From Candidatus Micrarchaeum sp. (lineage in GTDB: Archaea > Micrarchaeota > Micrarchaeia > CABMEP01), in the NCBI GenBank assembly GCA_020723065.1, contig DYJP01000002.1, positions 7,464 to 71,463 of the forward strand: a stretch of DNA of 64,000 nucleotides. Reading direction: 5' to 3'. Below, one piece after another: positions 4,213 to 64,000 of this stretch (its first letter is position 1; each line of letters begins with the position of its first letter). A model generated the notes under the pieces. That model saw only the letters and a program-made list of their open reading frames with translations. It did not search any database and was not told the origin of the DNA. Made by a program: the position numbers and the translations under genes.

Positions 4213-4340
4213 ACCTATATCGCCATTTGAATGTAATTATGTAAATGATAAAAAATATAAACTGTACCGCACATACTACTACAGATAAGAGACTTTTATT
4301 TATGCGAACCATATGTAGTTTTAATTGGAGTGGTGATTAT

Positions 4341-4880: not shown

Positions 4881-4905
4881 GAATTAATTGAAATAGGTGA
4901 AAAAA

Positions 4906-5805: not shown

Positions 5806-5842
5806 GATAAACATCTATTATTTAATTAACAGGGGGTTTAGC

Positions 5843-6364: not shown

Positions 6365-6385
6365 CTTATTTTTCAATTTCACATA

Positions 6386-8341
6386 TCAACAAATACCACA
6401 TACTGTACGTACCGACTTCGCGTTGGAAAGAAGCCCCTCTACAAACGGATTCGGCATGTAATATTCGTTGTAGATCCTGTTGGAGATCTCTCCATTGAAT
6501 CCATTGTCTCCGGAAACTATTCCATACAATGAGAGATAGGCTCTTACAAGCGAATCATTCGGGAACGAATTCTTAGCCTTGTTTTCATAATATCCTAATG
6601 TCTGGGCCACGCAACATATGTTTTTCTGAATTCCTTCATAAGTGTCGCAACTGCAATGAGGATTGGAAAGGAACAGTTCTCTTGCTGGAATTCCTCCTGA
6701 ATCATACTGCCCCTTGTAGGCCAATGCCGCCATCAGAACTGAGGCATCTATCTTATTTTCAGATGCCATATTTTTTATAAAAAGCGAGTTCTGCATGCAA
6801 TAGCCTGCATCGAACGAACCAGGCAGCACGGACTGCATGTCTATACAGAAAAGATTCCCACATTGGGTGGTGCTCACCGTCTTCTGAAGGTTTATCTTGT
6901 TGTAATCCGTTACCTCAAGGTCGAGTATATCATTATTGTATCCATACTGGTTGCACTGTGAAGCGACATTGTCTCCTGCTTCAGAGAACACTGCGAATGA
7001 TGAGTATGTGGAAGTGGGTGAACTGCTCGAATAGTATATTGTGCAGAACAGACCAAGACTGTTCAGCCCTTCCTTGGGCAAGGATGAAATGTCCTTAATT
7101 GATATTCCGATGACACCTGATCTTGAAAGGGCTGAAATTGATTTTATCAATGCTTGATAAAAGTCACCTATAGTTGTATTTGTCCAGGTGCAGGTTTCTT
7201 TCTGGTTGGTTCCCTGCCTTACATCTATGTCCAGAATCATGGTCGGCTTCCCGTATGTTTCAATGACGTGCTGCGCGAATGCTTTTATGGAGCTGTCCTT
7301 TTTCACATTTGAATCGGCATCATACTCCTTACTGTACAATATTATATTTGGCTCGCAACTTTCAAACGAATTTACATCCACCGTAAATCCTACAACATCT
7401 ATGCTATCCATGTCTCCGGAAGCCTTGTAGAAATCGAGTGTTTCAGTATCATTAAACCTAACAACCGCTACAGTCAAGCATTTTGGACACCAGGACTTTA
7501 TGGATGAAAAGGTTCCGCTTGGACTCCTTACGTTTTCAGTATTTAAGGATCTTTTTATAGAGTAACCAAAGCCGGGAGCAATAAACGCCGCACCTTTTTT
7601 GTTAGCTGCTTCGGCAAGCAGACTTGGGTATTCTAGATAATTGTATTTATAAAATGGGATTGTTCCGGAACTAAGGATGCAATCTGAAAGAAATTCCACT
7701 TCAGAAGCATCCACCTTTTGAGATTCCAATTTTAATATGATGAATCCCAAATTTCCTCCACACAACGACTTAAATTCCTCTCCCACGAATACAGAATCTC
7801 CAGTTCCAATCATTACGGTCTGTATGAATGTTCCGGTTGATTTCATAGTGTTCGATCCAGAATTTATTATGGCTTCAAGAGCCGATTTCTGCGTTGATTG
7901 AGTTAGATCAAACTTTTTCAATGAGCAGTTGCCTCCCGCCAAAGACGCCACTCCTATTTTTTTCTCAGATGTGAACATACTAACCAGGGAATCCCAAATC
8001 TTTGTAAATATAGATGCTTCCTTATAGTCACAAATGAGTGCAGTACAGGTATTCACTTCCTTGACCTCTTTCTGCTGATATTCTATAGTTTCTGCGGAAA
8101 GATATGAAGTGAACGTTGCCTTCTTAATGCATCCGAAAAGGAACAGTGTCGAAAACGCCAATAAAAGTAAAAGATAATTACTCTTCATAAGACCACTAAA
8201 TGAAAGAGATTCAATCTGAATCGTCTGGCCCCTCAGACTTGTCTTTTGAATCCTTTTTCTCTTTCTTGTATTCCAAAAGCTTCTTCTCTTCATATTCAAT
8301 TTCCTTCTTCTTTTCATACCATATCTACTTCTTTGGTTCAT
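6386..8341 (-). CDS. Large cysteine-rich exported/anchored protein of unknown function, last gene of the membrane-paralog operon
   Basis: A very basic N-terminus (RRRK/KRKR) is followed by a hydrophobic signal/anchor YLLLLLAFSTLFLFGC. About 590 extracytoplasmic residues carry ~20 Cys (CPKC, CGGNCS, CSCDTY...ICCVAQ). An alternative start at ATG 8188 (MKSNYLL...) is possible. An SD-like GGAG lies upstream of the 8341 start. Confidence 0.5.
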   Translation of the reverse strand: MNQRSRYGMKRRRKLNMKRRSFWNTRKRKRIQKTSLRGQTIQIESLSFSGLMKSNYLLLLLAFSTLFLFGCIKKATFTSYLSAETIEYQQKEVKEVNTCTALICDYKEASIFTKIWDSLVSMFTSEKKIGVASLAGGNCSLKKFDLTQSTQKSALEAIINSGSNTMKSTGTFIQTVMIGTGDSVFVGEEFKSLCGGNLGFIILKLESQKVDASEVEFLSDCILSSGTIPFYKYNYLEYPSLLAEAANKKGAAFIAPGFGYSIKRSLNTENVRSPSGTFSSIKSWCPKCLTVAVVRFNDTETLDFYKASGDMDSIDVVGFTVDVNSFESCEPNIILYSKEYDADSNVKKDSSIKAFAQHVIETYGKPTMILDIDVRQGTNQKETCTWTNTTIGDFYQALIKSISALSRSGVIGISIKDISSLPKEGLNSLGLFCTIYYSSSSPTSTYSSFAVFSEAGDNVASQCNQYGYNNDILDLEVTDYNKINLQKTVSTTQCGNLFCIDMQSVLPGSFDAGYCMQNSLFIKNMASENKIDASVLMAALAYKGQYDSGGIPARELFLSNPHCSCDTYEGIQKNICCVAQTLGYYENKAKNSFPNDSLVRAYLSLYGIVSGDNGFNGEISNRIYNEYYMPNPFVEGLLSNAKSVRTVCGIC

Positions 8342-8348
8342 AGCCTAT

Positions 8349-10859
8349 CTACTCCTTCTTCTCGTAACCGAGCTTGGGGGGGCTATATTTCCTTATGAAC
8401 TCTTTCGCGTAAGTGAGCGCCTTGTCCCGGTATTCCGATTTCGGAGATGCGGAAAGGACTATCTGTTCCCGTTCCATCTTGATGAGAAGATCATTGAGCG
8501 AATATCTCTGCATCAACCGCGTATCAAGAGTGAAGTCTTCCTCGACAGGATCAATGTTTCCTGCGAGCATCTCACTGAACGTCTTGTCGAACACTGTGCG
8601 CCCAATATCCTTGTTTTCAACTAGATCGATCCTTTCCAAGGCGAATTTAACCTCTTCGTCCTTTGCGTAAGGCGACATCAGTCTGTTGAAAAGAAGCTCG
8701 AAAACTTGGTCCTCATCCTTTCTTAATATTGTCGCATCAAACATCTGCCTCGCGGTTGTTTCGTCCAGCACCGGCTTGTCCCCGTAATAGTCCTCGGTCC
8801 GATTGTAAATATCGGCAAGAAAGCTATTTGCCTTGTTTGTTAGAATGTCGAAGGATATGAGCGAATTGAATGCGGATTGCTCCTTTGTTTTCACATCGTA
8901 GGAGCTGTTGTACTTTTCCACGTCGTGAAGGAACTTGTCTACGGAAGCCTCAAGGTTATTTCTTGCAGATATGATGTTGTCCATCCTCTCTTGGAAAATC
9001 TTGCCTTCCTGCTTTTCCAAGCCAACCAGAAGCGAAACGACCGCCTCTCTCTTTTCCTTTGATCCGAGAATCTCCTTTTCGATCTCGGCTTTTAATTTGC
9101 CGTCTTTTTCGGAGACATATTGGTCAAGCATGTTGTTTGAGATTCCCAACTTTTCGCTGACATTAAGCTTGTTTAGCAGTTCCTTGTATTCAGAATTTTT
9201 CACAAGGGAATCTTGTTTGGACACTATCTTAGTAAGAAGCGGGTCCAGCTCGCCCTTTTCAAGCTTCTGCACTCCGTCGTTCTTTACGGCCAGCTTGCGC
9301 TTATCGAATTCATTTAGTGTAAGATCGTTTAAAATGGCCGCAATCGAATCCACCCTCTCTTTCTCGGGAGTAATGGCGTTCATTGCGTTCTTATAATGCT
9401 TACTGTTCTGCGGATCCCCCATGATGTCCAGGACGTTTTTATTTATCATGTTCAGGCTCTTTATCATTTCGGCAATGTATATTCTTTCCAGCTCTATTTT
9501 CGTCTGGACTACTGCATCGATTTTCTTTGCGATTTCCGGATGTTCGGAAAAGTCCTTGGTCACCTTGAGCCCGACCTGCTCACGCAAGTCCTGGAAAAAG
9601 TTCGGATTGAGCGCCCTTCCGGGATCCCTTATGTATTGCACGTATTCACTAAGTATATACGTGTCTACGCTCTTCAGCTCTTCTTTTATAATTTCAGGAT
9701 TAATGCTTTCCAGTTCCGCTTTTTTAGCAAGAGTAAGCGCGGAAAGCGCCTTGAGGTCCTTTTCGTATTCCTGGATCTTCTTGACATACTGCTGCATCAT
9801 TTCATTTATCTTTTTTTCAGCCTGGTTTGCTCTCCAAATCTCCCCCTCCGTCCTTGCCTTTGCCTTTATCTTCTCTAATTTTTCCTTGCGCTTTTGCAGC
9901 GTGTTCACCCTACTCTTAGACGTTGCCAATCCTTTCATCAACTTGCTTCTCACCCCGAATTGGTTCAGTCTTCTTGCAAGCTTGAGCATCCTGTCCTGCT
10001 CTGATCTAGAAGTATAAACTTCCATTAGTTCTGCATATTTGTTTCTAGGCGTGTATTTCTCCAAAGTATTAACGGCCGAGAGCGAATTCAAATCTACATT
10101 TTTCGCTTTATAGAATGCAACGGCAACCGAAGTGAATACTTTTGCCATAGTACCTTTCATCACAGAAGTGCTTGTTTTTAACGAAAGCTTGGTAACGCGA
10201 GGCACCTTAATTCCTTTAACTTTGGGCATAGTTATGTCGAAAGCGGACATTGGCTTCCTTCCGGATGCGTAAAGTGCTGCTGCAAGAACACCTATAAACA
10301 AGAATACTATGAACCAACTTGAATCCACAAGCTCCTTAAACGAAAATACTGAAGATGAAAAGACGGTTTCGAATCTTTGAGTTGGAAAAAAAGTGGAATC
10401 GCCTTCAAAACGGACTTTTATTACTGCCTCATTTGAAGAAACTGTGGCAATGCAGAACCCTTTTCCTTCTGAATTGGTTATCCAGTTGCAAAGCTTAACT
10501 TGGTTAGATTGATCATTTGGATCAACCAAGTATGCAACAACCGATTGCCCCGCAACTGGCGAGAGACCGTAATTGCTAGATATGACTGATGGATCGATTT
10601 GGCCTGTCTGAGCATATTCAGCCAAAGTCTGTTTTGACTCTGGAAGAACGAAGCTAGATAATGTTGCGGATATGTTTAGGCTGGTAGTTGAAATGCTTGC
10701 AACTCTAAACTCTGAAAAATAAGTAGAAGTTTTAGTAGCGGCGAATATCATTTCAGAAAACAGAATGGTAACTAAGAAAATGCTTAGATATGAAAAGAAC
10801 AGTTTACGGATGCAAGGCATTCCAATGCATTTTCTTCTTAAAACCATATCTCTCCCCAT
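8349..10859 (-). CDS. Bitopic membrane protein: N-terminal signal/anchor, ~170-aa extracytoplasmic domain, TM helix, then ~620-aa K/E-rich coiled-coil cytoplasmic domain
   Basis: N-terminal hydrophobic segment FFSYLSIFLVTILFSEMIFA and a second TM WFIVFLFIGVLAAALYA. The long tail has a heptad-like K/E/L pattern with no Walker motifs. Confidence 0.5.
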   Translation of the reverse strand: MGRDMVLRRKCIGMPCIRKLFFSYLSIFLVTILFSEMIFAATKTSTYFSEFRVASISTTSLNISATLSSFVLPESKQTLAEYAQTGQIDPSVISSNYGLSPVAGQSVVAYLVDPNDQSNQVKLCNWITNSEGKGFCIATVSSNEAVIKVRFEGDSTFFPTQRFETVFSSSVFSFKELVDSSWFIVFLFIGVLAAALYASGRKPMSAFDITMPKVKGIKVPRVTKLSLKTSTSVMKGTMAKVFTSVAVAFYKAKNVDLNSLSAVNTLEKYTPRNKYAELMEVYTSRSEQDRMLKLARRLNQFGVRSKLMKGLATSKSRVNTLQKRKEKLEKIKAKARTEGEIWRANQAEKKINEMMQQYVKKIQEYEKDLKALSALTLAKKAELESINPEIIKEELKSVDTYILSEYVQYIRDPGRALNPNFFQDLREQVGLKVTKDFSEHPEIAKKIDAVVQTKIELERIYIAEMIKSLNMINKNVLDIMGDPQNSKHYKNAMNAITPEKERVDSIAAILNDLTLNEFDKRKLAVKNDGVQKLEKGELDPLLTKIVSKQDSLVKNSEYKELLNKLNVSEKLGISNNMLDQYVSEKDGKLKAEIEKEILGSKEKREAVVSLLVGLEKQEGKIFQERMDNIISARNNLEASVDKFLHDVEKYNSSYDVKTKEQSAFNSLISFDILTNKANSFLADIYNRTEDYYGDKPVLDETTARQMFDATILRKDEDQVFELLFNRLMSPYAKDEEVKFALERIDLVENKDIGRTVFDKTFSEMLAGNIDPVEEDFTLDTRLMQRYSLNDLLIKMEREQIVLSASPKSEYRDKALTYAKEFIRKYSPPKLGYEKKE

Positions 10860-10919
10860 TATATTTAATTGATTTATATATAAATGCTTTCCGATTTGCT
10901 TAAATTTACAGATATAAGG

Positions 10920-12113
10920 CTATATGAGTTTTGCTAAACCTTCAGCAAAGTCCTGAGCATCCACATTAAGGAATATGGAAAATGACTTTATGAATGTATA
11001 AGCAAGAACTGCTGCAATAAATGGATAAGCAACTCCGAATATCACCATCTCCCCAATTATTCGCTGCGTATTGGTCATATATGAGATTATGGATGTACTT
11101 TGATATTCTGTTTCACCTATTGAGCTAGTAAATAAGTCCATTGTTTTTGAAAATATTCCAGCAGAAAGTATGTCTGTCAAAATCGGACATGGTACGGCAG
11201 ATAAAAGTGTTGCACTGGTGACACCAGATGTTCCACAAAGGCCGTCAACCCCGCCCGAAGTTGTCCCAAGTACCATCAATATGCTGTATGATATCGGATA
11301 AACGAAATAAAGCCCAATTGAAACGGCAATAAGCAGGTTTCCGACAGAACGAACTACAGGAAAGCCCCTTAAGACCACTCCTACTGGAAGAAACACAGTA
11401 AGCATTGTTGTTTGAATAAAGAGCAGGAGCTGCTTTTGGAAAAAGAACATGTAAATTATGTATGAAATATCTGAAAGCAATCTGTTTATGGCACTTATCG
11501 GAACGCTAAGACCCATTTTAGCAATCTGAGTGACAAAGGAAGACGATGAAAGAACTGAAGATATGCTTCCTAGTGCTGAAGGAACTGAAATGCTCGAAAT
11601 AACCTTATTTGATTCTATTGTATTCAAGACCATCGGAATAGCAACAAGGCAAAATCCATCCTCGTATCGCTTCTGGGCACACACGAGTGTTCGGTTCATA
11701 TAATATTCTGCAACCACAAAGGGAGACTTGTCATTGGCCAAAACAGTTTGAAGTGCGATGCGGTCTTTCGACATTATTCCGACAAATTCTGCAGACTTGC
11801 TTGCAAGGACGTCTACGAACATAATTAGAAATGACAAAAGCACAACTGTAGATATTGCATAAATGAATTCTGATTTCGCAAGCTTCTCCAGGTCACTGGA
11901 TTGAAAAAGCCTTCCAAACATGAATGTAAGAGCCGAAAATGAAAATGAAATAGTCACAGCTATTACGGCAATCAATTCCCAGGGAAAGTCAACCGAATAC
12001 CAAGTCTTTGAAAGTTCCGAAGCAGGTGTTGTTGATGAAGAATAAGTTGACTGTGCTAATGAGATGGAAACGAAAGCCAGGAAAAATACAAACCAATTCG
12101 ATATTCTTCGCAT
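10920..12113 (-). CDS. Paralogous polytopic membrane protein, family member 6 of 6 (397 aa)
   Basis: Signal-like N-terminus. Shared motifs SDLEKLAKSEFIYAISTVVLLSF, LPVGVVLRGFPVVRSVGNLLIAVSIGLYFVYP, and C-terminal tail ...AQDFAEGLAKLI. Confidence 0.6.
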   Translation of the reverse strand: MRRISNWFVFFLAFVSISLAQSTYSSSTTPASELSKTWYSVDFPWELIAVIAVTISFSFSALTFMFGRLFQSSDLEKLAKSEFIYAISTVVLLSFLIMFVDVLASKSAEFVGIMSKDRIALQTVLANDKSPFVVAEYYMNRTLVCAQKRYEDGFCLVAIPMVLNTIESNKVISSISVPSALGSISSVLSSSSFVTQIAKMGLSVPISAINRLLSDISYIIYMFFFQKQLLLFIQTTMLTVFLPVGVVLRGFPVVRSVGNLLIAVSIGLYFVYPISYSILMVLGTTSGGVDGLCGTSGVTSATLLSAVPCPILTDILSAGIFSKTMDLFTSSIGETEYQSTSIISYMTNTQRIIGEMVIFGVAYPFIAAVLAYTFIKSFSIFLNVDAQDFAEGLAKLI

Positions 12114-12140
12114 ACGACCACTAAAAATTACAATACATAA

Positions 12141-13772
12141 CTATATTATCTTCCATATGGAGGCAATATCCATTTCAGAACCAAGCGCGCTAGACAGGCC
12201 TCTTATTCCCTTAGATATTACCGTAAGATTAAGTATTGGAAGCAGAATTCCGGCAATGAACGAGACTACAACCAGATCGAAAAGTTTTCTTATTGATTCG
12301 GATATTGTCGAATCAGAACTGGCGCTTCCTACTATTGTTTGTGAATATGAAGATGTTAGCAAAGTTGTTTGTGTATCCAAAACTTGAAACTGTGCAGACG
12401 GTGACGTTTCGGAAATAGCATAGCTTGCTGCGAGAAGATAGTTTACATCAGATTCAGTCAGAATTGTCTTTGTACAAACTTCATTTGGAGCAGCACCAGT
12501 ACAAGCCCTAGAGGCACACTCTCTCCAATCACCGCACTTTTCCCCATTTGATTTCTTAGGTATGCAAACCTTTCCACCTTCGATCTCATTTGAAACTGTT
12601 CTGTCCCCCACATAAATTGTACTGTAGACATGACTTGTCGAATTGCAAATGCCAGATATGCATTCCGAATCTTTAGTGCACTCTACCCCGTTTGCCTTCC
12701 CTATCTCACATTTTCCAGTGATTGGATTTTTCACAAAACCCTCACAGCATCGTATTGCAACCGAACCTTCTCCACCACAGGAACTACAGTTCTTCCCGGA
12801 AGAAGTCTGCTCACAGTATCCAGACTGGCATTGATCATCTGTCTCGCACGGCTGACCAACATCTTTCAATGGAGAACAAAGCTTAAGATTTTTAGATTGA
12901 TCGAATTCACACATATGCGAATAGCAGTCAAAATTGTTTGTGCATGAAAGTTTCTCAAATATTTCATCTGAATTAACATATTTGTCTACCATTGCCTGAT
13001 TCAAAAGCAAAACGAAAGGAATTAAGATATAAAGACTAATGCCTGCGCCAAGAAGTGCACCGCCAAATTTACGGAAAGGCAAGATGGATCTAAGAACCAA
13101 CCCTATAGGGACCAAAAAGAACAATGTTAAATACGGGACTATCTTTATTATATGAAGCTGAACCACGGTCAACAAGTATGCAGACAAGGCTATCCCATAA
13201 AGAACAAACGTTGAATCGGAAACATATTTTATCGGGTCTGATAATATCTCGAATGTTTTAGATGGTGTTGCATAGCCTTCAACAGATACAGTGGAAAGAA
13301 GCTGCAAGCTTGCTCCTATCGCACCTATTGCGATAGTTGTTTTGCCTAAATATCCAGAAAGTCTAGAAAGATATGATTCGGCAGCAATGAATGTAGGACC
13401 TTCCTTGCCGAAAAGATCGCTCACAACATCGCTACACATAAAGCCGACTATCGCAGTAATTGACACCAGGATAAGTGCGGTGAATACTAGCTGATAAAAC
13501 TCATTTTTAGACTTAGAAATGAAAGAATTGTCGATCGTAGAACCGTACATGTACATAAATCCGACCAGTAAAATTCCAATAATAAGCCCGATGAAGGCGG
13601 TTGCCCTCCAATCATTTATTGAAAGCATGAACTCGCATCCTGCTGTTTGCGCGCTTTCTGCCGTTACTGCGGCTTGAACAAAATAAGAAATGAAAAAGAA
13701 TATGAATAGTGATCTGAATAGAACTGAATCCTGGAAAGTTCCTAAATTCAAATTAAATTTTTTGGAGTCCAT
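12141..13772 (-). CDS. Paralogous polytopic membrane protein, member 5 (543 aa), with a disulfide-rich extracytoplasmic insert
   Basis: Shared motifs KNEFYQLVFTALILVSI and VPIGLVLRSILPFRKFGGALLGAGISLYILIPF. A ~110-aa insert carries repeated C-x(3-4)-D-x-C-x-S-G-x-C modules (CETDDQCQSGYC, CTKDSECISGIC, CTNNFDCYSHMC). Confidence 0.6.
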   Translation of the reverse strand: MDSKKFNLNLGTFQDSVLFRSLFIFFFISYFVQAAVTAESAQTAGCEFMLSINDWRATAFIGLIIGILLVGFMYMYGSTIDNSFISKSKNEFYQLVFTALILVSITAIVGFMCSDVVSDLFGKEGPTFIAAESYLSRLSGYLGKTTIAIGAIGASLQLLSTVSVEGYATPSKTFEILSDPIKYVSDSTFVLYGIALSAYLLTVVQLHIIKIVPYLTLFFLVPIGLVLRSILPFRKFGGALLGAGISLYILIPFVLLLNQAMVDKYVNSDEIFEKLSCTNNFDCYSHMCEFDQSKNLKLCSPLKDVGQPCETDDQCQSGYCEQTSSGKNCSSCGGEGSVAIRCCEGFVKNPITGKCEIGKANGVECTKDSECISGICNSTSHVYSTIYVGDRTVSNEIEGGKVCIPKKSNGEKCGDWRECASRACTGAAPNEVCTKTILTESDVNYLLAASYAISETSPSAQFQVLDTQTTLLTSSYSQTIVGSASSDSTISESIRKLFDLVVVSFIAGILLPILNLTVISKGIRGLSSALGSEMDIASIWKII

Positions 13773-13780
13773 TAAATCAC

Positions 13781-14917
13781 TTATAATTTTTTGATTACTT
13801 CTGAGAAATCCACATCGGATCCGAAGAAGTACCCAAGCTCCTTTGCAACTATAATCGTTATAGTAAAGTCAATTATAGGTATTATCGTAAACAATAAAAA
13901 TGCGAATGACGCTTCGTTGAATAAGACAAGCGGGTTCAAATATTCATTTAGCAACGATGGAAGTTTAGATACAGTATTTATGGAAAAAGCCAATGAAGCA
14001 AATATTGAATTCGTATCATCCTTAAATGAAGTTTCAAGATTCGTCATGAACTTGCCCATTTCTGTATTCTGGGTTCTTGCATCCAGAATATCACTCCATC
14101 CCCCTGGCTTATTCAGAAGTGTATCTACTATTGTTTGATTAATTACAAATGTAAGTGGATAAACTATGTAGAACGAAATTGCAACAACAATCAGAAAATT
14201 ACCAACATTTCTTAAAAAAGAAAAGGTTCTTAATAATAAACCAACTGGCAGAATCAGAGTAAATGCAAGCTTATCTATAAAGTCTAAAAAGTATATCTGC
14301 ATTGTAGTAAGTCCAAGAACTGAAGCAGAAGAGGTTAATATGAAATTGACCATGTTAATTATACTTTCAAAAATAGAGCTTATTGCCCTATCTATGTCAA
14401 ATAAAGGTACTTCCGCAATTTTCGTAAGATAACTGTTGCCAACCACTAATGCAACTTTGAACATATTGGCTGAAGTGACGATTGAAAGCACATATTTTTG
14501 AACGGAAGAAAGATAGATCTTAGCGTTTTCTATCGCTCCGTTTGGATGCTCCACTGTGGCTGTAAATCCGTAAGCCTCAAAAACCATATTCTCTATCTTT
14601 ATCGCTGAAAAGAATAGGAAAACCACTAGCGACATCATGATTACCTGATATAGCTCATTGTTTGCCCAACCGCCCAATTCCCTGACTCCAAAAACCTTGG
14701 AAACCATAAATGCAAGAGAGATAACACCGAGATTTAAGAAGAGCGCTGCAAGAACTATTATTTCCCACGGCAGCGCTCTTAAATTGTAAACTACGACCGA
14801 ATCTTCCTGAGCGAATGTCGCTGGAATTAAAGCAATAATAATCATAAGAACAAAAATGAACGGATGGACACTATATGATTTGAAAGAAGCCGTTCCTGTT
14901 TTTTTAATTTCATTCAT
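13781..14917 (-). CDS. Paralogous polytopic membrane protein, member 4
   Basis: Shared motifs NNELYQVIMMSLVVFLFF and LPVGLLLRTFSFLRNVGNFLIVVAISFYIVYP; tail FGSDVDFSEVIKKL. The start is trimmed to MNEIKK (ATG 14915-14917), which removes the 47-nt overlap with the upstream gene; the track start is 14980. Confidence 0.55.
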   Translation of the reverse strand: MNEIKKTGTASFKSYSVHPFIFVLMIIIALIPATFAQEDSVVVYNLRALPWEIIVLAALFLNLGVISLAFMVSKVFGVRELGGWANNELYQVIMMSLVVFLFFSAIKIENMVFEAYGFTATVEHPNGAIENAKIYLSSVQKYVLSIVTSANMFKVALVVGNSYLTKIAEVPLFDIDRAISSIFESIINMVNFILTSSASVLGLTTMQIYFLDFIDKLAFTLILPVGLLLRTFSFLRNVGNFLIVVAISFYIVYPLTFVINQTIVDTLLNKPGGWSDILDARTQNTEMGKFMTNLETSFKDDTNSIFASLAFSINTVSKLPSLLNEYLNPLVLFNEASFAFLLFTIIPIIDFTITIIVAKELGYFFGSDVDFSEVIKKL

Positions 14918-14933
14918 GTGATCACGATAAGTG

Positions 14934-16148
14934 TTATATAAGTTTAGAGAATCCAGCAAGATCCACGTCTCCTCCAACAAGCTGGGAGAATTCCTTAATG
15001 AATGAGACTAGTCCATAGATAGAAATTATGAATGGAACAAGGATCCATACTGAAAGCACCGAGAGATTATCAAGAAAACCACCGGGCATTATTGTTCTAA
15101 ATATAGTGTATGATATTCGGTCAACTGTATTTCCTTCGGATGTTTCAACCCAAAGATATTTCGTAGTTAAATCCTTTGAGAATTTCACAACTCCTGTTGC
15201 CCAGTCTTTATTTGATTCATCGATATTTTCAGAAACTACTACAATTCCGCCAGTTCCTGCTGCGGAACTTTCAGAAGGAACGTTTGAAATTTGGGACGTT
15301 TCAGCGGTTATAAACTGGGAATTGTCTGAAAATGCAGATACAAACGCATTTGGATCAGGTGAAAACAAAGTCGTCGAAAATACTATAAGCATCGGATATA
15401 TGAAATAAGTTCCGACTGCTATTGAGAAAAGAAGACCGCCCACCCCTCTGAATAATGATATTGACCTCAAAGCAAGACCCGCAATTATTAATGCTGGAAA
15501 GAGCGACTTCATTACAAAAAATAAAAACATTGAATTGGCCTTCAGAAGTATAAGAAGGTTGAAGCCGATTTGAATAAAGTTTGAATAGATTTGGCTTATA
15601 TTGGAGAGAACCGCCAAGGGGGTCGCTTTAAACGCACCATAACCCATAGATACTCCGGCAAGGAGATCGACCCAACCTGCAGAAACCACTTTGTTTGCAA
15701 GATAATACCGCACCACATCATAAGTGTGCTCTAGCTGCGTTATTGCAATCACCATATGGCAAGGAAGTTCGTCTCCTCCGCAGCTCACCTGTACCATTTT
15801 AACTGCAGCATTGAGATTCTCTGGACTTTCAGTAATTATTCCGTACTTTTGGAATTCTATCTTATTGAATGTGCAGTAATCTGTGCTGCAAGAAAGGCTG
15901 AGCGCTGGATTTATCGCAGAAATTACGCCATACATCAGATTGTTCGCTATAGCGACCATGAGCACAGCAGAACTCAGAAGAAATGCTGAAGCAAAAATCT
16001 GGTATATCTCATTCTGGGCCCATTTCTTTAAATTGTCATTGTCGAGGGCCCTTGCGATCATGTAGAATAATGAAATGAAGGCTAAGGAAATCACCAAAAT
16101 TAAAGAGGTGACGGGAGCCCAAGCCTGAAATATCATTTCATATACCAT
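14934..16148 (-). CDS. Paralogous polytopic membrane protein, member 3 (404 aa)
   Basis: Shared motifs LKKWAQNEIYQIFASAFLLSS and IIAGLALRSISLFRGVGGLLFSIAVGTYFIYP; tail VGGDVDLAGFSKLI. Confidence 0.6.
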   Translation of the reverse strand: MVYEMIFQAWAPVTSLILVISLAFISLFYMIARALDNDNLKKWAQNEIYQIFASAFLLSSAVLMVAIANNLMYGVISAINPALSLSCSTDYCTFNKIEFQKYGIITESPENLNAAVKMVQVSCGGDELPCHMVIAITQLEHTYDVVRYYLANKVVSAGWVDLLAGVSMGYGAFKATPLAVLSNISQIYSNFIQIGFNLLILLKANSMFLFFVMKSLFPALIIAGLALRSISLFRGVGGLLFSIAVGTYFIYPMLIVFSTTLFSPDPNAFVSAFSDNSQFITAETSQISNVPSESSAAGTGGIVVVSENIDESNKDWATGVVKFSKDLTTKYLWVETSEGNTVDRISYTIFRTIMPGGFLDNLSVLSVWILVPFIISIYGLVSFIKEFSQLVGGDVDLAGFSKLI

Positions 16149-16163
16149 ATAATCACTTTAAGC

Positions 16164-17054
16164 TTAATCTATGCTATCCAAGAAATTTGTAAATGTCTCT
16201 ACAAATGAAACAGTAATTGTAAAATTGATCAAAGCGAGAAATGTCGCTTGCGGAATCAGAATCGCCATCTGGTCAAAGTAGCCTAAAACATCTATAATTT
16301 GTGAAGATAACTTAAATGTTTCTAAAGGTTCAATAGTTGTCTTTGCAAGACCGTTGAAATTCGGATCAATTGTGTTGTATATTGCATAGTCCATAACGTA
16401 GGTCATTGGAAATACAATATAAAGACCAAAGGCTAATGCCATTAGGAATGAGCCTCCTTTGCGCATCATTGGAATCGTTCGCAATACCATTCCGAGTGGA
16501 AGCAATAATGTCATCGCAAACGCCTCCGAAAACTGAATAAGTATCAATTGAGCATGAAGACTTCCTACTATCACATTGAACAAGGATCCAAAAAGACCTA
16601 TTATCTTAGAAAAAGGAGTGAGCACTTTTCCTGGAGAGAATTTAACTGAACTCTTAGCCGCTGGAAGACCGGTTTTAATCTCTAAAGATGAAATCATGTC
16701 GATAATGAAACCACTGACCCAGAGATTTTGAATTGTCGGAAGCCCTTTCTTATAGATAAGGGTCGTAAGATATTGGCTGCTTGCGGTGAACTGGTTTCCT
16801 TCCCCTATAGTGCTCTGCACCAGATTCTGTGCTGCCCCGCAAGAGGCAGTGGCAAGCCCAACTATTACAACTGCAACTATCAATGCAACGAAAAGCTGAC
16901 TTAGTTCTTTCTTTGCCATCGCCTCGAATTCGCTCTTAATAAGAAGCCTACCGAGCATAAACAGCAAGGAAACAAATGCAAGCGTGGTAATTGAAGCTAA
17001 ACCTATGAAAGTCCAAACATCAATTACAGGCATGCATGCGTCAAGAACAACCAT
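16164..17054 (-). CDS. Paralogous polytopic membrane protein, member 2 (296 aa, minimal core without a large insert)
   Basis: Shared motifs EFEAMAKKELSQLFVALIV and LLPLGMVLRTIPMMRKGGSFLMALAFGLYIVFP. Confidence 0.6.
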   Translation of the reverse strand: MVVLDACMPVIDVWTFIGLASITTLAFVSLLFMLGRLLIKSEFEAMAKKELSQLFVALIVAVVIVGLATASCGAAQNLVQSTIGEGNQFTASSQYLTTLIYKKGLPTIQNLWVSGFIIDMISSLEIKTGLPAAKSSVKFSPGKVLTPFSKIIGLFGSLFNVIVGSLHAQLILIQFSEAFAMTLLLPLGMVLRTIPMMRKGGSFLMALAFGLYIVFPMTYVMDYAIYNTIDPNFNGLAKTTIEPLETFKLSSQIIDVLGYFDQMAILIPQATFLALINFTITVSFVETFTNFLDSID

Positions 17055-17066
17055 ATAAACACCAAA

Positions 17067-18755
17067 TCATATCAGTCTTCCCATTTCTATTATTTTTGTT
17101 TCGCCACCAAGTGTCTGTGATATTGACTTAAATGAACCTACAAATATCGCTATGGTAAGTGCAAATGTAAAAAATATCATCAATGGCGGAAACATTATCT
17201 TGTCTATATTATCTGTAAGATACAGAAACAAATAACCCGAGGAAACGGGACTCAGTGCGACACCAATTAATGATGCATCTGAAGCAGTTGAAAGCAGGCC
17301 CTTCATAAATGTATTGGTGCCGCTGAAAAATCCTTTTATTCCGGATGCAGTAAGCCTCAAATAGCTTATATCATTCAACTCATTTTCCTTTGTTGATGCT
17401 GACAATTTGCAATAAAAACTAGACCAAAGCCCTTCTTTGCAGGGATCTCCAAAATAAAAGCTGTAATTGTCGATATACTGCAAGTTCTTCTCTTCCGACT
17501 TAACAGCTAAAACGATCGTATTTTCATCGTCTGCCTTGAATGATGCAGAATTTAATGCTTGAGTTATATTCTGACCTACAGTAACTGCACCTCTTCCAGT
17601 AAGCTTGAAACAGTTTGTCACATCAAATTTAGATGTATATGGTATTCCATCTTGATCATAAGTGGTAATAGTTTCTTCTCTAATTGTCTTCCAGTAAACA
17701 TAATCCTTTGGAGGCAAATTAGCGTAAATTGAAGATTCAAAAGAAGATGAAATATCAGAAACATAAATTTTGTAATTCAATATATCGTTACACTGAACCT
17801 GTGACCAAATAGAATAATTGAGCGGTACAAGCGCCTTCCATTCGAATTTGTCGCTTTCATTGAGATAATACTTTCCTGGAGCTGGCGAAGTCTTGAGATA
17901 CAGTCCAGCGCCAGTGGGATCGAAGTTTGGCAATTCGCCTAAGATGCCACTACCTGGTTCCATCTCTGTATACAATATATTTTTCATCTCAATGTACATT
18001 GCGTTTGAAACTATAAGCGAAATAGGATAGATTATGTAAGCTGCCAAGGCAATTGCAATTAAGGTGGAACCTGTTTTCCTACTCAATGGGAAGGCACGAA
18101 GCAATACACCCAAAGGCAATACGATTGGAAGCATTGTCTTTTGAATTATATTAAGCAATTCGTGCTGAACAAACATTGCAAAAAACATAGGTTGCATAAA
18201 GGATTCAAAAGATGAAAGCGGGCCTAAAAGCATTCCAAAGGGGCTTCCATATTTTAAGCCAAAATTACTTACAATTGCTGCAAAACTTCCCAACAACCCA
18301 GGAAGATTTACACTTGCAGCAGAAAGTAATGCAGTAAGCCAGCCTATTTTAAATTCGAAAGTTGAAATGAAAGTTATAATCGTTTTAAGAGAAATGACGT
18401 GAGTATATGCCTCTATAAGATCAGCTTGTGCAGTGTCAAGAAATGCGGCAGCAGATTCATAAGGAGTTTGACCGACATATGCAGTAGTTAGTGCAGTAAT
18501 AATTATTATCAATGAATATGCAATTCCAATCAAGGCTCCAGTAAATATGAATTCACTGAGCTCCTTTTTCGCCCAGCCTTTCAACTCATTAGACTGGAAT
18601 GCAGTGGAAAACATCCATGCAAGAGAACTCATTATGGCAGAAAGAATAAGGGACAACACGCAGGTTGCGAACCAGTTTCCATTTTGAAAAACAGAATCGA
18701 TTGAGGACTGGACTACTGTTGTAAACGTGCTCATTTCTGTCGCCATTAATATCAC
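17067..18755 (-). CDS. Paralogous polytopic membrane protein, member 1 (562 aa), first gene of the block
   Basis: Shared motifs NELKGWAKKELSEFIFTGALIGI and VLPLGVLLRAFPLSRKTGSTLIAIALAAYIIYP. A ~250-aa extracytoplasmic insert is present. Tail LGGETKIIEMGRLI. Confidence 0.6.
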   Translation of the reverse strand: MILMATEMSTFTTVVQSSIDSVFQNGNWFATCVLSLILSAIMSSLAWMFSTAFQSNELKGWAKKELSEFIFTGALIGIAYSLIIIITALTTAYVGQTPYESAAAFLDTAQADLIEAYTHVISLKTIITFISTFEFKIGWLTALLSAASVNLPGLLGSFAAIVSNFGLKYGSPFGMLLGPLSSFESFMQPMFFAMFVQHELLNIIQKTMLPIVLPLGVLLRAFPLSRKTGSTLIAIALAAYIIYPISLIVSNAMYIEMKNILYTEMEPGSGILGELPNFDPTGAGLYLKTSPAPGKYYLNESDKFEWKALVPLNYSIWSQVQCNDILNYKIYVSDISSSFESSIYANLPPKDYVYWKTIREETITTYDQDGIPYTSKFDVTNCFKLTGRGAVTVGQNITQALNSASFKADDENTIVLAVKSEEKNLQYIDNYSFYFGDPCKEGLWSSFYCKLSASTKENELNDISYLRLTASGIKGFFSGTNTFMKGLLSTASDASLIGVALSPVSSGYLFLYLTDNIDKIMFPPLMIFFTFALTIAIFVGSFKSISQTLGGETKIIEMGRLI

Positions 18756-23503: not shown

Positions 23504-24655
23504 ATGCCTATAACCATTCTTTTGGAAAAGAACAAACTCAAGGTAAGAAACCAACAGGATTACGAAGCGCTAAGAAGGGCTTTCTACGGAGAGAAGCGCG
23601 GACCCGAAATAGAGCTCACTGTAGAGGAAGCCCTCTATCTGATGGAAGTTCGAAATGCTATTTGCCTAGATGGAGAGCGATCCGTCACATTCAGTGAACT
23701 GGTGCAAAAATTCAACAAACCGAAACTGTTCGCAGAATACATCACATTCAGGGACTGGAGAGAAAGGGGACTCATGGTAAGACCTTTCTCAGACTCGAAA
23801 GGAAACTACAACAAGAATCCGACAGTCAAGTATCCGTTCAAGAAAACAAAATTCAATAAGGTGAATGCCAGCGGATTGTTCTTCAAAGAAGATAAGATGA
23901 CGATCCTGGAAGATGAAGAGACAGGAAAAATCCTGTATCAAAGTCATTGGTTCGGCCAGTACGGATCCTACAAGGCGGAAGGAAGGGGAAGGTTCCTAAA
24001 ACTTGACAAGTTCGAGACGATGTTCCTTGTGAAAAACTGTGGAATGGAGCTCATGAACTGCACGGAAGCAGAGCTCGACGCCAACCTGAATGAGGATCCT
24101 GATTTTCTGTCGATGTATCAAGTTTATGAAGATTGGAGAAATGCTGGATTCATAGTAAAAACAGGATTCAAATTCGGAACGCACTTCAGAATATATTTCC
24201 CAGGCGCATTGCCTGGAAAGAGCAAGGATTGGACCCATTCAAAGCACGTCCTCCACATATTCCCAAGGGAGAAGAGAATGGTAATAGCTGAATGGGCGAG
24301 AGCGATCAGGGTGGCTCACGGAGTCAGGAAGACGTTCATACTCGCCATACCTGGAAAGAAAAAAAAGGAAAAGAATAAATCCATAGTCAGTTTCATATTA
24401 TACCATAGGAAAGGAAACGCCATAGAGACCCCGGACAAAGACGGACCTTCTTTCGCCATGGTTTCATTGAGCGAAGAGGAAATGATCGGAGGAAACGAGC
24501 TTGCAATAGCGATCGAAGAATCCAAGAACCACGGGCTAGATGTTGTCCTGGGTATAGTTGATAGAGAGACTTCTGTCACTTATTACAGGGTAAAAAGAAT
24601 CGACTTGCCGGAAAGCAAGTACGAATATTACGAAATAGAATGGATACAGCCATGA
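23504..24655 (+). CDS. endA: tRNA-splicing endonuclease EndA, three-unit architecture
   Basis: Central catalytic motif GFKFGTHFRIYFPG...WTHSKHVLHI (Tyr/His/Lys triad region). It is preceded by an N-terminal EndA-like domain and followed by a ~130-aa extra C-terminal unit. Confidence 0.75.
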   Translation: MPITILLEKNKLKVRNQQDYEALRRAFYGEKRGPEIELTVEEALYLMEVRNAICLDGERSVTFSELVQKFNKPKLFAEYITFRDWRERGLMVRPFSDSKGNYNKNPTVKYPFKKTKFNKVNASGLFFKEDKMTILEDEETGKILYQSHWFGQYGSYKAEGRGRFLKLDKFETMFLVKNCGMELMNCTEAELDANLNEDPDFLSMYQVYEDWRNAGFIVKTGFKFGTHFRIYFPGALPGKSKDWTHSKHVLHIFPREKRMVIAEWARAIRVAHGVRKTFILAIPGKKKKEKNKSIVSFILYHRKGNAIETPDKDGPSFAMVSLSEEEMIGGNELAIAIEESKNHGLDVVLGIVDRETSVTYYRVKRIDLPESKYEYYEIEWIQP

Positions 24656-33819: not shown

Positions 33820-33925
33820 GCAGGGGTGCCAGAGCCAGGTCAAACGGGTCAGATTCAGTATTGAAGACCAAGCTTAGGACCTGATGCGCGTAGGCGCTGC
33901 GTGGGTTCAAATCCCACCTCCTGCA
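33820..33925 (+). tRNA. tRNA-Leu (anticodon TAG), class II with long variable arm and a candidate 19-nt intron at non-canonical position 30/31
   Basis: Acceptor stem GCAGGGG/CUCCUGC with discriminator A. T-arm GUGGG-UUCAAAU-CCCAC. Variable-arm hairpin GCGC-GUAG-GCGC. Removing 33853-33871 restores a perfect anticodon arm UCAGG-CUUAGGA-CCUGA. The D-arm pairing could not be resolved by eye. Confidence 0.55.
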
Positions 33926-59610: not shown

Positions 59611-59721
59611 GCTCCAATCGTCTAGCCCGGTCAAGGACGTAGCCCTTTCAGAAACTTTTGAAAAGTTTCATCAAAAGTCTAAAGAAAGGCTAAAACTCGG
59701 GTTCAAATCCCGATTGGAGCA
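59611..59721 (+). tRNA. tRNA-Glu (anticodon TTC) with a 36-nt canonical-position intron
   Basis: Acceptor GCUCCAA/UUGGAGC with discriminator A. D-arm GUC-UAGCCCGGUCAAG-GAC. Anticodon stem UAGCC/GGCUA enclosing the loop CUUUCA plus intron 59651-59686, which contains a GAAACUUUU/AAAAGUUUC hairpin. T-arm UCGGG-UUCAAAU-CCCGA. Confidence 0.7.
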
Positions 59722-59804: not shown

Positions 59805-61019
59805 TTAGCTAAACAACAGCTTAAGGTAAAACAACGGAGAGGAGAAGCTCTTCTTCGCCTCTTCGCTTACGATCATAGTGGTGAGCTCCTTCCTTATTTC
59901 CGGATTCCTTGCGGCTTTGTCTATTACCAGATTGAGCAGGAATTCGTTCTTTCCTAGTCTTTGGAGCAGGTAGCTCATTTCAAGTTCCTTATTGAGTTCG
60001 TTCTTGATTTCCTGTTCGTATTCGCCAAGTATTTTTTGGCTGTAGGCGCCTAGCCTGAGCGCCCTGCTTATTGTTCTGAACGCGATCTTACCACTTGTCA
60101 TCGCATTACCCATCCCTTCTCCTGAAAACGGATCAATGAGCGAGGCGGCGTCTCCTAACAGTAACCAGCCGTCACCAGCTATCTGCTTTCTTATCTTGGA
60201 ACCCAACGGCAAGCTCCAGCCCTTTATTTCACTTATAAGTTTCGCATCCTTGAATCTTTCCTTAAATGTGGGGTTGAGTGTTATTTCATTTTCCATGAGT
60301 TCCTTGAGGTTGACATTTCTAGCCTTGACGTCTTTTGTAAGCATTCCTAGCCCTACGTTGGCTGTTCCATCCTCATATGGAAATATCCAGAAATAGCCGG
60401 GTATCGCCGTCTTTGTGAAGTGAAGTTCTATAACATCCTTCATTCCGGTGACACCGTCATAATAACCCCTTACTGCAAGGCAGTGGTGGTTCGGATCAAT
60501 TTCAAACACTCCGACTTTCTGAGCCACTACCGACATTGCGCCGTCCGCTCCTACTACTATATTAGCATTTATTTTCATCTCTTTTCCAGTCTTATCTGTT
60601 CCTACTATTCCGACAACCTGGTTTCCTTCCTTGATGAGGTCTGTAACTGTGAATTCCTCAAGTGTCTCTACGTATTTCTTTGCAGCTTTATAGATTATGT
60701 TGTCGAGAATCTCTCTTCTGCAGACGAATCCATCTTGGGAATCGGTCCTTATTTCAAGTATGGTTCCTTTCGGAGAAGAAAATATTACCCCATTATTTAC
60801 TCCGTGGGCCGCCTTCTTTACATCGGAAAGGATTCCCAGCTCCCTGAGCACTGCGATTGACTTTCCGCTGCATGCGTCTCCGCATGTCTTGTCTCTCGGG
60901 AACTTTGCCTTGTCCACAAGAAGGACCTTGTGACCTTCTCTTCCAAGAAAGTTCGCGCATACAGATCCGGACGGACCCGCGCCTACAATTATTACGTCGT
61001 ATTTGTTAGCAATAGTCAT
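59805..61019 (-). CDS. ggr: Geranylgeranyl reductase (digeranylgeranylglycerophospholipid reductase), FAD-dependent
   Basis: FAD dinucleotide motif YDVIIVGAGPSGS, 404 aa, archaeal GGR family. Confidence 0.85.
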   Translation of the reverse strand: MTIANKYDVIIVGAGPSGSVCANFLGREGHKVLLVDKAKFPRDKTCGDACSGKSIAVLRELGILSDVKKAAHGVNNGVIFSSPKGTILEIRTDSQDGFVCRREILDNIIYKAAKKYVETLEEFTVTDLIKEGNQVVGIVGTDKTGKEMKINANIVVGADGAMSVVAQKVGVFEIDPNHHCLAVRGYYDGVTGMKDVIELHFTKTAIPGYFWIFPYEDGTANVGLGMLTKDVKARNVNLKELMENEITLNPTFKERFKDAKLISEIKGWSLPLGSKIRKQIAGDGWLLLGDAASLIDPFSGEGMGNAMTSGKIAFRTISRALRLGAYSQKILGEYEQEIKNELNKELEMSYLLQRLGKNEFLLNLVIDKAARNPEIRKELTTMIVSEEAKKSFSSPLFYLKLLFS

Positions 61020-61261: not shown

Positions 61262-64000
61262 ATAAAGAATTATGAGAAAGGAGATTTAGTATTAGCTAGC
61301 TCACAGATCGCGTTAGCTCTCTGTTTACACTACTAACCTATCAAACGGGTCTGCTACCCGCTCTCACGTTTGACTAGTTTTGGGAGATCCTTCGACCTTA
61401 GATGCTTTCAGGTCTTATGATTCGATGCGTGGCTGCCCGGCAATACTTTCAATAACCGGTATACTAGAGGCACCCGTCCCCTGTTCCTCTCGTACTCAAG
61501 GGGCGCTACCCTCAGTCAAAAACACTCCTAGTAGATACTACCGTACTGTCTCGCGACGTACTGAACCCAACTCGTGTATCTCTTTAATGGATGAACAAAC
61601 CAACCCTTGGGAGCTCCTACACTCCCAGGATGAGATAGGTCGACAGCGATGTACCAAGCCGCGGGGTCGATATGTACGCGACAGACTAGTGCTTTTAAAC
61701 GAAGACTAAACTGTCGCAGGGTACTCTCGCCCGCGACGAGCCTGTTTTGGGTCTTAACAGCTACAACTGGGACATAATTATCTTAAAATACGATATGGTT
61801 GAGAAGGAATGTATTTAAGAGAGGAGTGTATGTCCGATTACGTACGCAACTGAAAAGATTACCCCCGAGGTAACTTGTCTGACAGATTGAGCCCTTAACA
61901 AAAGGATTTCAATGTTCGTTAAGCCCGGCTTTCGCCTCTGCGTCCCACGCTTTTAAGAACACAGTCAGCCTTGCATTTCTCTTTAACCGTCTTCACCCGA
62001 CGTTCAGTGATCGAATGATGATTTGCGTCATTCGCTGTTGGCCTCTTCATATTAACGCACTAGGATTATGCAAACACTTGCGTGTCCACATCCTGCCTTT
62101 ATAGACAGATGTGCATCAGAGGTTGTTCATAATATCATCCGCGCATCGTTCGGTCATTTCTGACCGGGTTGAGCAAAGCTTTGGGCGCCCTTATTTCCTT
62201 ATTGAGGGCGTACTGCCCCAGCCAAACTATCCACCAGCCGCTGTTCCATTTCTGGTTAGAAACACAAAAAATGAAGAGTGGTGTTACACTTTTGCATCCG
62301 CCTCAGCCGCGACCGAGGTTTCTACGCTCCCACTTACGCTCTGCAACATTCTATGAATTCCAACGACAGGCTATAGTAAAGTTCTACGGGGTCTTCGTTT
62401 CCCACTAGGAGTCCTCCGCATATTCACGGAGTAGTGAGTTCACTAGGTCCCTCGTTGGGACAGTGGAAGAGTCGTTATGCCCTTCATGCAAGTCGCCAAT
62501 TAAGCGACGAGGTATTACGCTACCTTAAGAGGATCAGAGTTATCCCCGCTCTTCGCCAGCCCTTAAATCCCTTGAACGAGATGTTCGGGTACTGGTAGTG
62601 AGCAGGCATCGGCACCTATACTCGACGTTTCCATTTTGCAGGTACCTGTGTTTTTGATAAACAGTCGCTCTTCCCTTGTTACTGAGACTTGCACATGCAC
62701 CGTAAGGTACAAGCGCAGGTAATCCTTCTACCGAAGATACGGATCTATTTTGCCGAATTCCCTAACGAGAGTTCCCCTAACACGCCTAAGCTTATTCAGC
62801 TAGCCACACTTGTACTAGTTCTAGGTACGATCATCACGGATCGGATAGAACAACTTTTCACTGATCCAAGGTCTCAACAGAACCCCCAAACGAGGGCTGC
62901 TCATGCCTTGTACTGCTTCTCCTCATAACGAGACTCCACAGTATTATGTCACTTGAACAGAATCACTTCTGCTCCGTCTAACCTCAGATGTCATGTTTCT
63001 ACCTTGTGTTGCCACGTCTACCATGATGGTACAGGAATATTAACCTGTTTCCCATTCGTCCCCGAGTAATTAGCTGGGGCCTTAGGATCGACTAACTCTT
63101 GGCTGACAAACGTTGCCAAGAAAACCGTGGGCTTTCGGCGTACCGGATTCGCACCGGTATTTGCTGCTACTAACTCCAGGATATTTATTGCAATACAGTC
63201 CATTGGAACTCACGTCCCAACTTCGCTCTGTACCGCACACCTCCCTACCGGATCACACTTTTTGAGTGTGCCCTTGGGTCTCAGCATCCAGTTTAGTCCC
63301 GTTCATTTTCGGCTTGTATATATCTCCCAACAAAGTTGGTGTCGAACGGTCCGCTATTACGCGTTGCTTAGACGATGGCTGCTTCTAAGCCTACGTCCCG
63401 TCTGTCTAGATATATACCTTCCTTGTGTCTTCACACTTAACTGGAATTTTGGGGCTTTAACCCAAGACTCGTTCGTTCACGTCACGGCTCACCAGCTTAC
63501 CCGGTGAAACCCGACTCTCTATTTCTACGATGATTGTAGATTCGGAGTTTGACAATACAGCAGGCTCTTTCGAACCTATTCTGTCTAATCAGTGCTCTAC
63601 CCCACAATCTATCTCCATAAAGGTCATCCTAGGGGATGCTTCGGGAGGAACCCGCTATCGCGATGCTCGATTGGACTTTCACCCCTACACAGAAGTCACC
63701 AAAACAGATATACTAGAATTTGTTGCGGTCCTCCACCAGTCGTTAGACTGGCTTCAACCTGCTTCAGTGTAGTTCGCAACCGTTTCGGGTAAGATTATAG
63801 TGACTACACGCATTTTCATACGACGCGCCTCGTTCAGCACTACGCGCAATTGCTTTCGCTTCGCCTTTCGGCTCGCCACTACCATCTACTCCCTGGATCT
63901 TGTTTCGAGAAGTACGATACAACGCTGATCAGCTATTTTGGTCCACAGCCTTGCGACTGTATTCTTCAATAGCGTCGTCTCTTTAACGCCGTATCAACCT
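61262..64000 (-). rRNA. rrl: 23S ribosomal RNA, 3' ~2.7 kb; the 5' end lies beyond the window end
   Basis: The reverse complement contains universally conserved domain V/VI sequences: CUGAAAGCAUCUAAG (plus strand 61397-61411), GGGUUCAGUACGUCGCGAGACAGU, AACAGGCU...CAUAUCGAC (PTC/H89), and GUUGAUAGG-type helix 101 near the 3' end. Confidence 0.9.

Follow-up and report, generated by a model that had tools for sequence, protein, structure and literature searches.

A very probable 47-nt bulge-helix-bulge intron at the tip of helix 89 in the 23S rRNA gene of a Micrarchaeota-like archaeon

Introns at the functional centres of archaeal ribosomal RNA (rRNA) have been known since the 1980s. Introns of the bulge-helix-bulge (BHB) type are by now established in archaeal rRNA genes, those of DPANN archaea included (PMC6125680, PMC4496867). 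The splicing endonuclease of ARMAN-2 consists of three units and has 387 aa (PMC3239211); the ARMAN-1/-2 enzyme (387/390 aa) cleaves strict as well as relaxed BHB motifs (PMC3239211, PMC5829648), and the three-unit type is said to occur only in ARMAN-1/-2 and Mia14-like Micrarchaeota (PMC5829648). The subject here is a 64,000-nt stretch of contig DYJP01000002.1 (hereafter the window), at the end of which an archaeal 23S (large subunit, LSU) rRNA gene lies on the minus strand (61267-64000; Rfam RF02540, 1868.7 bits, model positions 556-2987), with its 5' end cut off by the window edge according to Rfam. An insert of 47 nt in this gene, in the loop of helix 89 (H89), is very probably a protein-free archaeal BHB intron that is excised from the RNA, and is called intron C below. 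This reading draws on the motif, which is conserved and covaries among relatives, on 23S-sized contigs from sister lineages in which precisely the ligated product is found, and on an endonuclease gene in the window.

The original prediction had placed 47 extra nucleotides in the H89 loop, which is confirmed by the minus-strand sequence of the window (...GUCGCGGGCGAGAGUACCCUGCGACAGUUUAGUCUUCGUUUAAAAGCACUAGUCUGUCGCGUACAUAUCGACCCCGCGG..., the insert region reading GUCGCGGGCGAGAGUACCCUGCGACAG...CUGUCGCGUACAUAUCGACCCCGCGG) and by its alignment to the E. coli rrlH 23S, where the extra bases sit in the 7-nt apical loop of H89 that is closed by G2470:C2480 and A2471:U2479. The covariance-model alignment proposed as a check, run with Rfam, does not resolve the insert: the model mis-anchors on upstream sequence and reports a single insertion of 167 nt, which in reality comprises two inserts, this one and another, with a 27-nt exon between them; the placement in the H89 loop comes from the E. 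coli alignment. With its junctions taken from intron-less relatives, intron C is an element without an open reading frame (ORF), located at 61672-61718 (minus strand) between E. coli positions 2477 and 2478.

Folding of the junctions, likewise suggested as a check, reveals a strict helix-bulge-helix-bulge-helix (hBHBh') structure. For the 91-nt region, the folding energy is -38.5 kcal/mol (z = -4.2), none of 200 shuffled sequences being as good. In this minimum free energy fold, helix h is made up of native H89 pairs, one G:C and one A:U (G61726 and A61725 with C61669 and U61670), and is followed on the minus strand by the exon strand of a 4-bp GUAC/GUAC central helix (61721-61724, i.e. E. coli 2472-2475), which is unchanged and base-paired in all 7 distinct sequences. 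Then come the 3-nt 5' bulge CCU (61718-61720) and the 5' strand of the 7-bp stem h' (GCGACAG, 61711-61717), in which relatives show two compensatory pairs; across a small apical hairpin, this strand pairs with the 3' strand CUGUCGC (61678-61684), which leads into the intron strand of the central helix (GUAC, 61674-61677), both of these being supported by the fold and by homologues. The 3' bulge AUA (61671-61673) precedes U61670 and C61669, and like the 5' bulge it is defined by the fold together with intron-less relatives. Canonical cutting, after the second nucleotide of each bulge, predicts an intron at 61672-61718 and the ligated loop GUACCCA. The BHB motif coincides with the ~8 registers that restore a 7-nt loop, for which the expectation is ~1.6e-4.

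Part of the original description has to be revised on these grounds. The perfectly complementary ends (GCGACAG/CUGUCGC) are indeed present and form stem h'. The UAC repeat is real as well, but it is the palindromic central helix GUAC/GUAC of the BHB rather than a target-site duplication and, because UAC is repeated, boundaries based on alignment are ambiguous. The boundaries first drawn (61678-61724) are 6 nt off, since intron-less relatives place the junctions at C61719|U61718 and U61672|A61671, and the same relatives give GUACCCA for the joined loop instead of GUACAUA. A junction GAGAGUAC|AUAUCGAC was favoured at first, since it restores the near-universal GUxCAUA, and was rejected because all intron-less contigs read GUACCC|AUCGAC.

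Relatives were found in two ways, of which the first was a search of contigs encoding homologues of the geranylgeranyl reductase (GGR) whose gene (59805-61019) adjoins the 23S gene. The window's own GGR and the near-identical P0001 were without a record, while P0002 led to L121, a public contig of a metagenome-assembled genome (GCA_975302265.1), positions 6968-9701 of which are 100% identical to the window's 23S segment. The other informative contigs reached in this way, L122 (GGR 86% identical, 23S 88-90% identical to the window) and L124 (GGR 73% identical), both have the H89 insert, with changes only in its interior. L125 was uninformative, having no rRNA beside its GGR gene, as was L123, which ends inside intron C. 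The second way, a metagenome scan with a lineage-specific 3' exon signature (including A2503C), yielded 14 more loci, and the loci were compared by BLAST and MAFFT. A scan of the genome collection with the 14-mer ACATCGCTGTCGAC, which is too short, returned chance matches in unrelated bacteria only, none of them with rRNA. As a separate observation, L123 (GCA_902385155.1, CABMEP010000032.1) starts at its position 1 inside intron C (...UCGCGUACAUAUCGAC), possibly because a mixture of intron-bearing and intron-less reads broke the assembly there, although coincidence is also conceivable.

The H89 insert is found in 11 contigs, all genomic or truncated genomic, in seven distinct versions of 42-47 nt, and every contig with genomic flanks has it. 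In these seven versions the BHB core is invariant and the apical part variable, with 98.9% of cells paired and compensatory changes in two stem pairs, 22:59 (CG/UG/UA) and 25:56 (CG/UA). With 7 distinct sequences only, and the same covariation score being reached by 31 of 500 shuffles, the compensatory substitutions appear to lend modest support to the BHB structure. Presence in all 11 genomic relatives would also fit a permanent expansion segment, i.e. 47 nt that remain in the mature 23S and lengthen the H89 tip in this lineage, as would a stable hairpin that is coaxial with H89 and the divergence that DPANN rRNAs show otherwise (e.g. A2503C). In such a segment, however, nothing would be expected to maintain a spacing of exactly 4 bp between two 3-nt bulges, and the insert evolves faster than the invariant exons that flank it. 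In addition, it is precisely absent from 23S-length contigs with 99.8-99.9% exon identity, which makes retention in the mature rRNA most improbable.

These intron-less contigs are six in number, and all of them read GAGAGUACCC|AUCGAC (over a longer stretch, GAGAGUACCC|AUCGACCCCGCGG), which is the canonical BHB ligation product. They measure 2.6-2.9 kb, end within ~25 nt of the 23S ends and carry no flanking genes, whereas 10 of the 11 insert-bearing contigs extend into flanking spacer or genes. Two of them, L131 and L135, are 99.8% identical to the genomic L122 and L139; in fact, a global alignment of L135 with L122 contains 2 substitutions in 2927 nt and, besides these, only two precise gaps of 113 nt and 42 nt. 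Another of the intron-less contigs, L138 (Ga0265598_1004143), is circularly permuted, its 23S 3' end being joined to the 5' end (reverse-complement positions ~599-643). The hairpin at this junction, ACCACAUCCG[GUCUUUA]CGGAUGUGGU, has 10 bp and a 7-nt loop, which is the remnant expected of BHB ligation (4 + 2 + 1 nt), like that in the circular pre-rRNAs of archaea, so that L138 at least looks RNA-derived, with the shape of a BHB-ligated circular pre-23S rRNA. All three inserts of the gene (see below for introns A and B) are absent together from all six 23S-sized contigs, and A and B, whose junctions are of BHB type too, are likewise missing at the canonical cut positions.

The contiguity of these sequences over the junction also bears on the class of the element. 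Self-splicing group I introns occur in Micrarchaeota LSU genes (PMC6125680) and domain V hosts classic group I sites, which leaves some room for a group I or group II intron, or for a bacterial-type intervening sequence (IVS) that is cut out by RNase III without religation and leaves a fragmented 23S. With 47 nt, though, the insert is far too short for a ribozyme (a group I intron, with its conserved P3-P8 catalytic core, usually exceeds 200 nt), no Rfam intron family reaches the gathering threshold in the window, and contigs that run on over the junction imply ligation rather than fragmentation. The probability of any such class is therefore practically negligible.

A number of points weigh against a spliced BHB intron. 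A loose BHB scan of the 2.7-kb rRNA gave 16 motifs versus 15.3 in shuffles (~2e-5 per position pair), which is the rate expected by chance; the motif alone is therefore weak evidence, the weight resting on its coincidence with the loop-restoring registers, and the scan was not used as stand-alone evidence. The near-universal loop GUUCAUA differs from the joined GUACCCA at three positions, and it is the combination of intron 3' end and exon that would give GUACAUA. Co-folding of the 23S flanks of L121 showed no obvious canonical BHB, though there is a long processing stem. The lineages from which the intron-less contigs come are sisters of that of the window, with 23S sequences ~88-90% identical to its own, so that the evidence for splicing in the organism of the window is indirect. 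Lastly, that the six contigs are spliced RNA is inferred from their extents and from the one permuted contig, and a literature search for the identifiers of the JGI datasets from which they come, namely Ga0068664, Ga0124933, Ga0115601, Ga0184649, Ga0115598 and Ga0265598, found nothing.

In view of this last point, the six contigs might be genomic alleles of intron-free strains, with a presence/absence polymorphism at the level of DNA only. Intron B is truly polymorphic in genomic DNA, and L135 runs ~21 nt beyond the Rfam 3' end, into the trailer, both of which would suit this explanation. On the other hand, the six contigs are confined to the 23S while nearly all intron-bearing ones reach the flanks, one of the six is permuted in the manner of a circular pre-rRNA, and the three inserts are missing together. 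A purely genomic polymorphism is therefore considered very unlikely. Even if the six contigs were DNA, the best explanation for deletions exactly at the canonical BHB cut positions would be loss via a spliced RNA copy, which again makes the element a BHB intron. The proposal in the original prediction of a small ORF-less intron that is removed by BHB splicing is thus supported by the hBHBh' junctions, the ligation product in six contigs and the EndA gene described below.

Starting from a spliced BHB intron, removal would proceed as follows. The uppermost native pairs of H89 in the pre-rRNA (G2470:C2480 and A2471:U2479) would stack on the 4-bp helix in which exon nucleotides 2472-2475 (GUAC) pair with the GUAC close to the 3' end of the intron. 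The splicing endonuclease EndA would cut after the second nucleotide of each bulge (C61719|U61718 and U61672|A61671), after which an RtcB-type ligase would join the exons into the 7-nt H89 loop GUACCCA, and the freed 47-mer would probably be circularised. Which enzyme acts, as well as the ligase, the timing and the circularisation, is taken here from established archaeal splicing biology.

The window does encode a splicing endonuclease of 383 aa (23504-24655, plus strand), of the three-unit (epsilon2-like) kind, with the N-terminal domain (PF02778) at residues 7-66 and the catalytic domain (PF01974) at residues 201-285. It matches PDB 4fz2, which we take to be the ARMAN-2 enzyme, over its full length (E=1.4e-122), and both its length and its internal catalytic unit agree with the three-unit epsilon2 enzyme of ARMAN-1/-2. 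All BHB motifs of this genome are expected to be substrates of this EndA. An RtcB-type ligase was not found among the scanned ORFs of the window. Two of the four Rfam tRNA matches in the window are over-long (111 and 106 nt) and both were missed by ARAGORN, from which it appears that they contain introns. The longer one is tRNA-Glu(UUC) (59611-59721, plus strand; 49.6 bits), with an intron of ~36 nt at the canonical position 37/38, where by inspection a central helix CUUU/AAAG with bulges CAG and AAA can be drawn; this predicted intron serves as an internal control for BHB splicing in this genome. The other is a class II tRNA (33820-33925, plus strand).

No ORF and no C/D guide-RNA boxes are recognisable in intron C, and its divergence is in step with that of the host rRNA, for which reasons it is read here as vertically inherited, fixed and non-mobile; the only requirement that can be demonstrated would be its precise removal.

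The original prediction also missed two sister introns of this domain, which lie 27 nt (intron B) and ~280 nt (intron A) farther upstream. Intron A (156 nt, 62002-62157, minus strand) is a textbook hBHBh' intron in the loop of helix 84 (H84), between E. coli 2310 and 2311, and is seen by the Rfam covariance model as a 157-nt insert in that loop. From eight homologues, RNAalifold arrived unprompted at a helix h of 6 bp, a central helix UCAG/CUGA, the two bulges AAA and ACG, and an h' of 13 bp in which 4 pairs covary; the intron-less contigs read CCCGGUCAGAA|GUCGGG at this site. Intron B (114 nt, 61746-61859, minus strand) is of BHB type and interrupts the peptidyl-transferase centre between E. 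coli A2450 and A2451, presumably near the classic LSU-2449 intron site; its position is given by intron-free genomic relatives, and its boundary is ambiguous by 1-2 nt within a run of A. It is polymorphic in genomic DNA, being present in the window and in L124, L126, L129, L130 and L133 and absent from L122, L127, L128, L132 and L139, which read GGGGGUAACAGG. The ends of intron B are conserved, whereas its interior has diverged strongly. By inspection, a register with GGG:CCC(+G.A), a bulge UAA and UCUU:AAGA yields the observed product. The best-paired register, in which all four pairs are Watson-Crick (GGGU/ACCC), would keep two additional A's at A2451 and was ruled out by the intron-free genomic relatives that read GGGGGUAACAGG.

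Intron A contains, in its core (~62028-62138), an arrangement that resembles a box C/D guide RNA: a stem GCG, AUGAUAU (C-like), a 12-nt spacer, CUGA (D'), a variable middle, AUGAAGA (C'), another 12-nt spacer, AUGA (D-like) and a stem CGC, with the terminal stem forming a structure like a kink-turn (GCG-GAU-GA / GA-CGC). Among eight relatives, boxes and spacers hardly vary, and a relaxed C/D pattern, defined post hoc, is unique in the window versus 0.02 expected. The best rRNA match of the D' spacer puts U2552, a conserved methylation site of the A loop (PMC7994747), at the fifth nucleotide upstream of D', with 9 Watson-Crick pairs out of 12; of 300 shuffled guides, 241 attain this number too. 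The D spacer pairs 10/12 at 2500-2511, including the lineage-specific C2503, which 17 of 300 shuffled guides do as well, and by the fifth-nucleotide rule it points at U2504. Rfam gives the C/D-like region E=5.6 only. With statistics that are weak or post hoc, a guide function of intron A can be regarded as a lead, not as a finding.

A doubtful extension of this lead is that the three domain V introns act in cis during assembly of the 50S subunit. Intron A would then form a box C/D guide ribonucleoprotein within the pre-23S, for 2'-O-methylation of U2552 (in the A loop) and of U2504 (beside C2503), ~200 nt downstream, while introns B and C would keep the peptidyl-transferase centre unfolded until splicing, so that EndA would act as a late assembly checkpoint. 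If true, a C/D guide borne by an rRNA intron would be unreported in archaea, as far as the literature search showed.

As to the host, the closest named homologues of the GGR are those of Candidatus Micrarchaeota/Micrarchaeia, and the organism is therefore a DPANN (Micrarchaeota-like) archaeon; its GC content is ~40%, and that of the rRNA 47%. The operon is complete in L121, with the 16S gene at 3907-5317, a 1138-nt spacer and the 23S gene at 6456-9700, from which it can be seen that the full 23S gene has 3245 nt, or 2928 nt after removal of the three introns. Within this operon, the 16S gene, with 1411 nt, is short and intron-free, and the spacer (5318-6455) is unusually long and partly conserved in relatives (BLAST blocks at L121 5788-6178).

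The mature 23S departs from the consensus at positions of the peptidyl-transferase region that are otherwise very conserved, namely (relative to E. coli) A2448G, C2499A, A2503C and G2509A (61639-61652, minus strand, and neighbourhood), and its H89 loop is GUACCCA versus the usual GUUCAUA. A2503C is common to all relatives found, a set that is biased in this respect, as A2503C was part of the search pattern. Elsewhere in the window, a block of large ORFs on the same strand (6386-18755, minus) encodes 651, 836, 397, 543, 399, 404 and 562 aa. These ORFs have no Pfam match at E<=1e-5, a 296-aa ORF of the same run (16164-17054) lying outside the scan, and the block is one of lineage-specific proteins of unknown function.

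The biology itself is as expected, and the element is of a known kind; what is specific here is the H89 site, the small size, the occurrence of three introns in domain V and the apparent fixation with vertical descent. The searchable literature yielded no report of an intron at the tip of H89 (LSU 2477/2478), so that this apparently unreported site, together with 2310/2311 and 2450/2451, is added to the map of archaeal rRNA introns. In addition, short ORF-less BHB introns are extended to Micrarchaeota-like DPANN archaea with a broad-specificity three-unit endonuclease. On a practical level, the annotation is corrected to a 23S gene of 3245 nt with a mature RNA of ~2928 nt, and since a covariance-model alignment mis-places two of the three inserts, primers, probes and phylogenies that rely on domain V would be affected. 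It also seems that public assemblies alone can yield near-direct evidence of splicing, through the comparison of intron-bearing genomic contigs with intron-less contigs of 23S size.

Compared with described systems, intron C resembles the IVS of bacterial 23S (in helices 25 and 45, removed by RNase III) in being a short hairpin insert in a terminal loop that is absent from the mature rRNA. The bacterial IVS, however, is excised without ligation and leaves a fragmented 23S, whereas the exons are joined here and the motif is a BHB instead of an RNase III duplex. With the introns at position 37/38 of archaeal pre-tRNAs it shares the motif and the cut rule, and presumably EndA and RtcB, but its host RNA is rRNA and its helix h is the native H89 rather than the anticodon stem. 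Intron A is comparable to the box C/D intron of euryarchaeal pre-tRNA-Trp (cited in PMC7994747), a BHB intron with C, D', C' and D boxes and 12-nt spacers complementary to its host RNA; it differs from that guide in being hosted by 23S rRNA, in its degenerate boxes (AUGAUAU, AUGA) and in a predicted guide-target pairing of 9-10/12.

The nearest relatives by host and gene are the BHB and group I introns in LSU genes of DPANN archaea (Micrarchaeota, Pacearchaeota, Woesearchaeota) described by Nawrocki, Jones & Eddy in 2018 (PMC6125680), where the host is the same at the level of phylum and several introns per gene likewise cluster in domains IV and V. The catalogue given there is one of group I introns (at 1923, 1931, 2500, 2593 and other sites), BHB introns being shown only schematically, whereas the present gene has three short BHB introns and no group I intron. 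The rRNA BHB introns of crenarchaea (in the 23S of Desulfurococcales and Thermoproteales and the 16S of Thermoproteales, PMC4496867) also occupy conserved, functionally central sites of the rRNA, and their junctions, too, fold into a BHB that is cut by the tRNA splicing endonuclease, with conserved junction cores and variable interiors. Unlike in those cases, the host here is a mesophile-like DPANN archaeon, and intron C, with its 47 nt, lacks a homing-endonuclease ORF and, in contrast to the sporadic crenarchaeal introns, appears to be fixed and vertically inherited.

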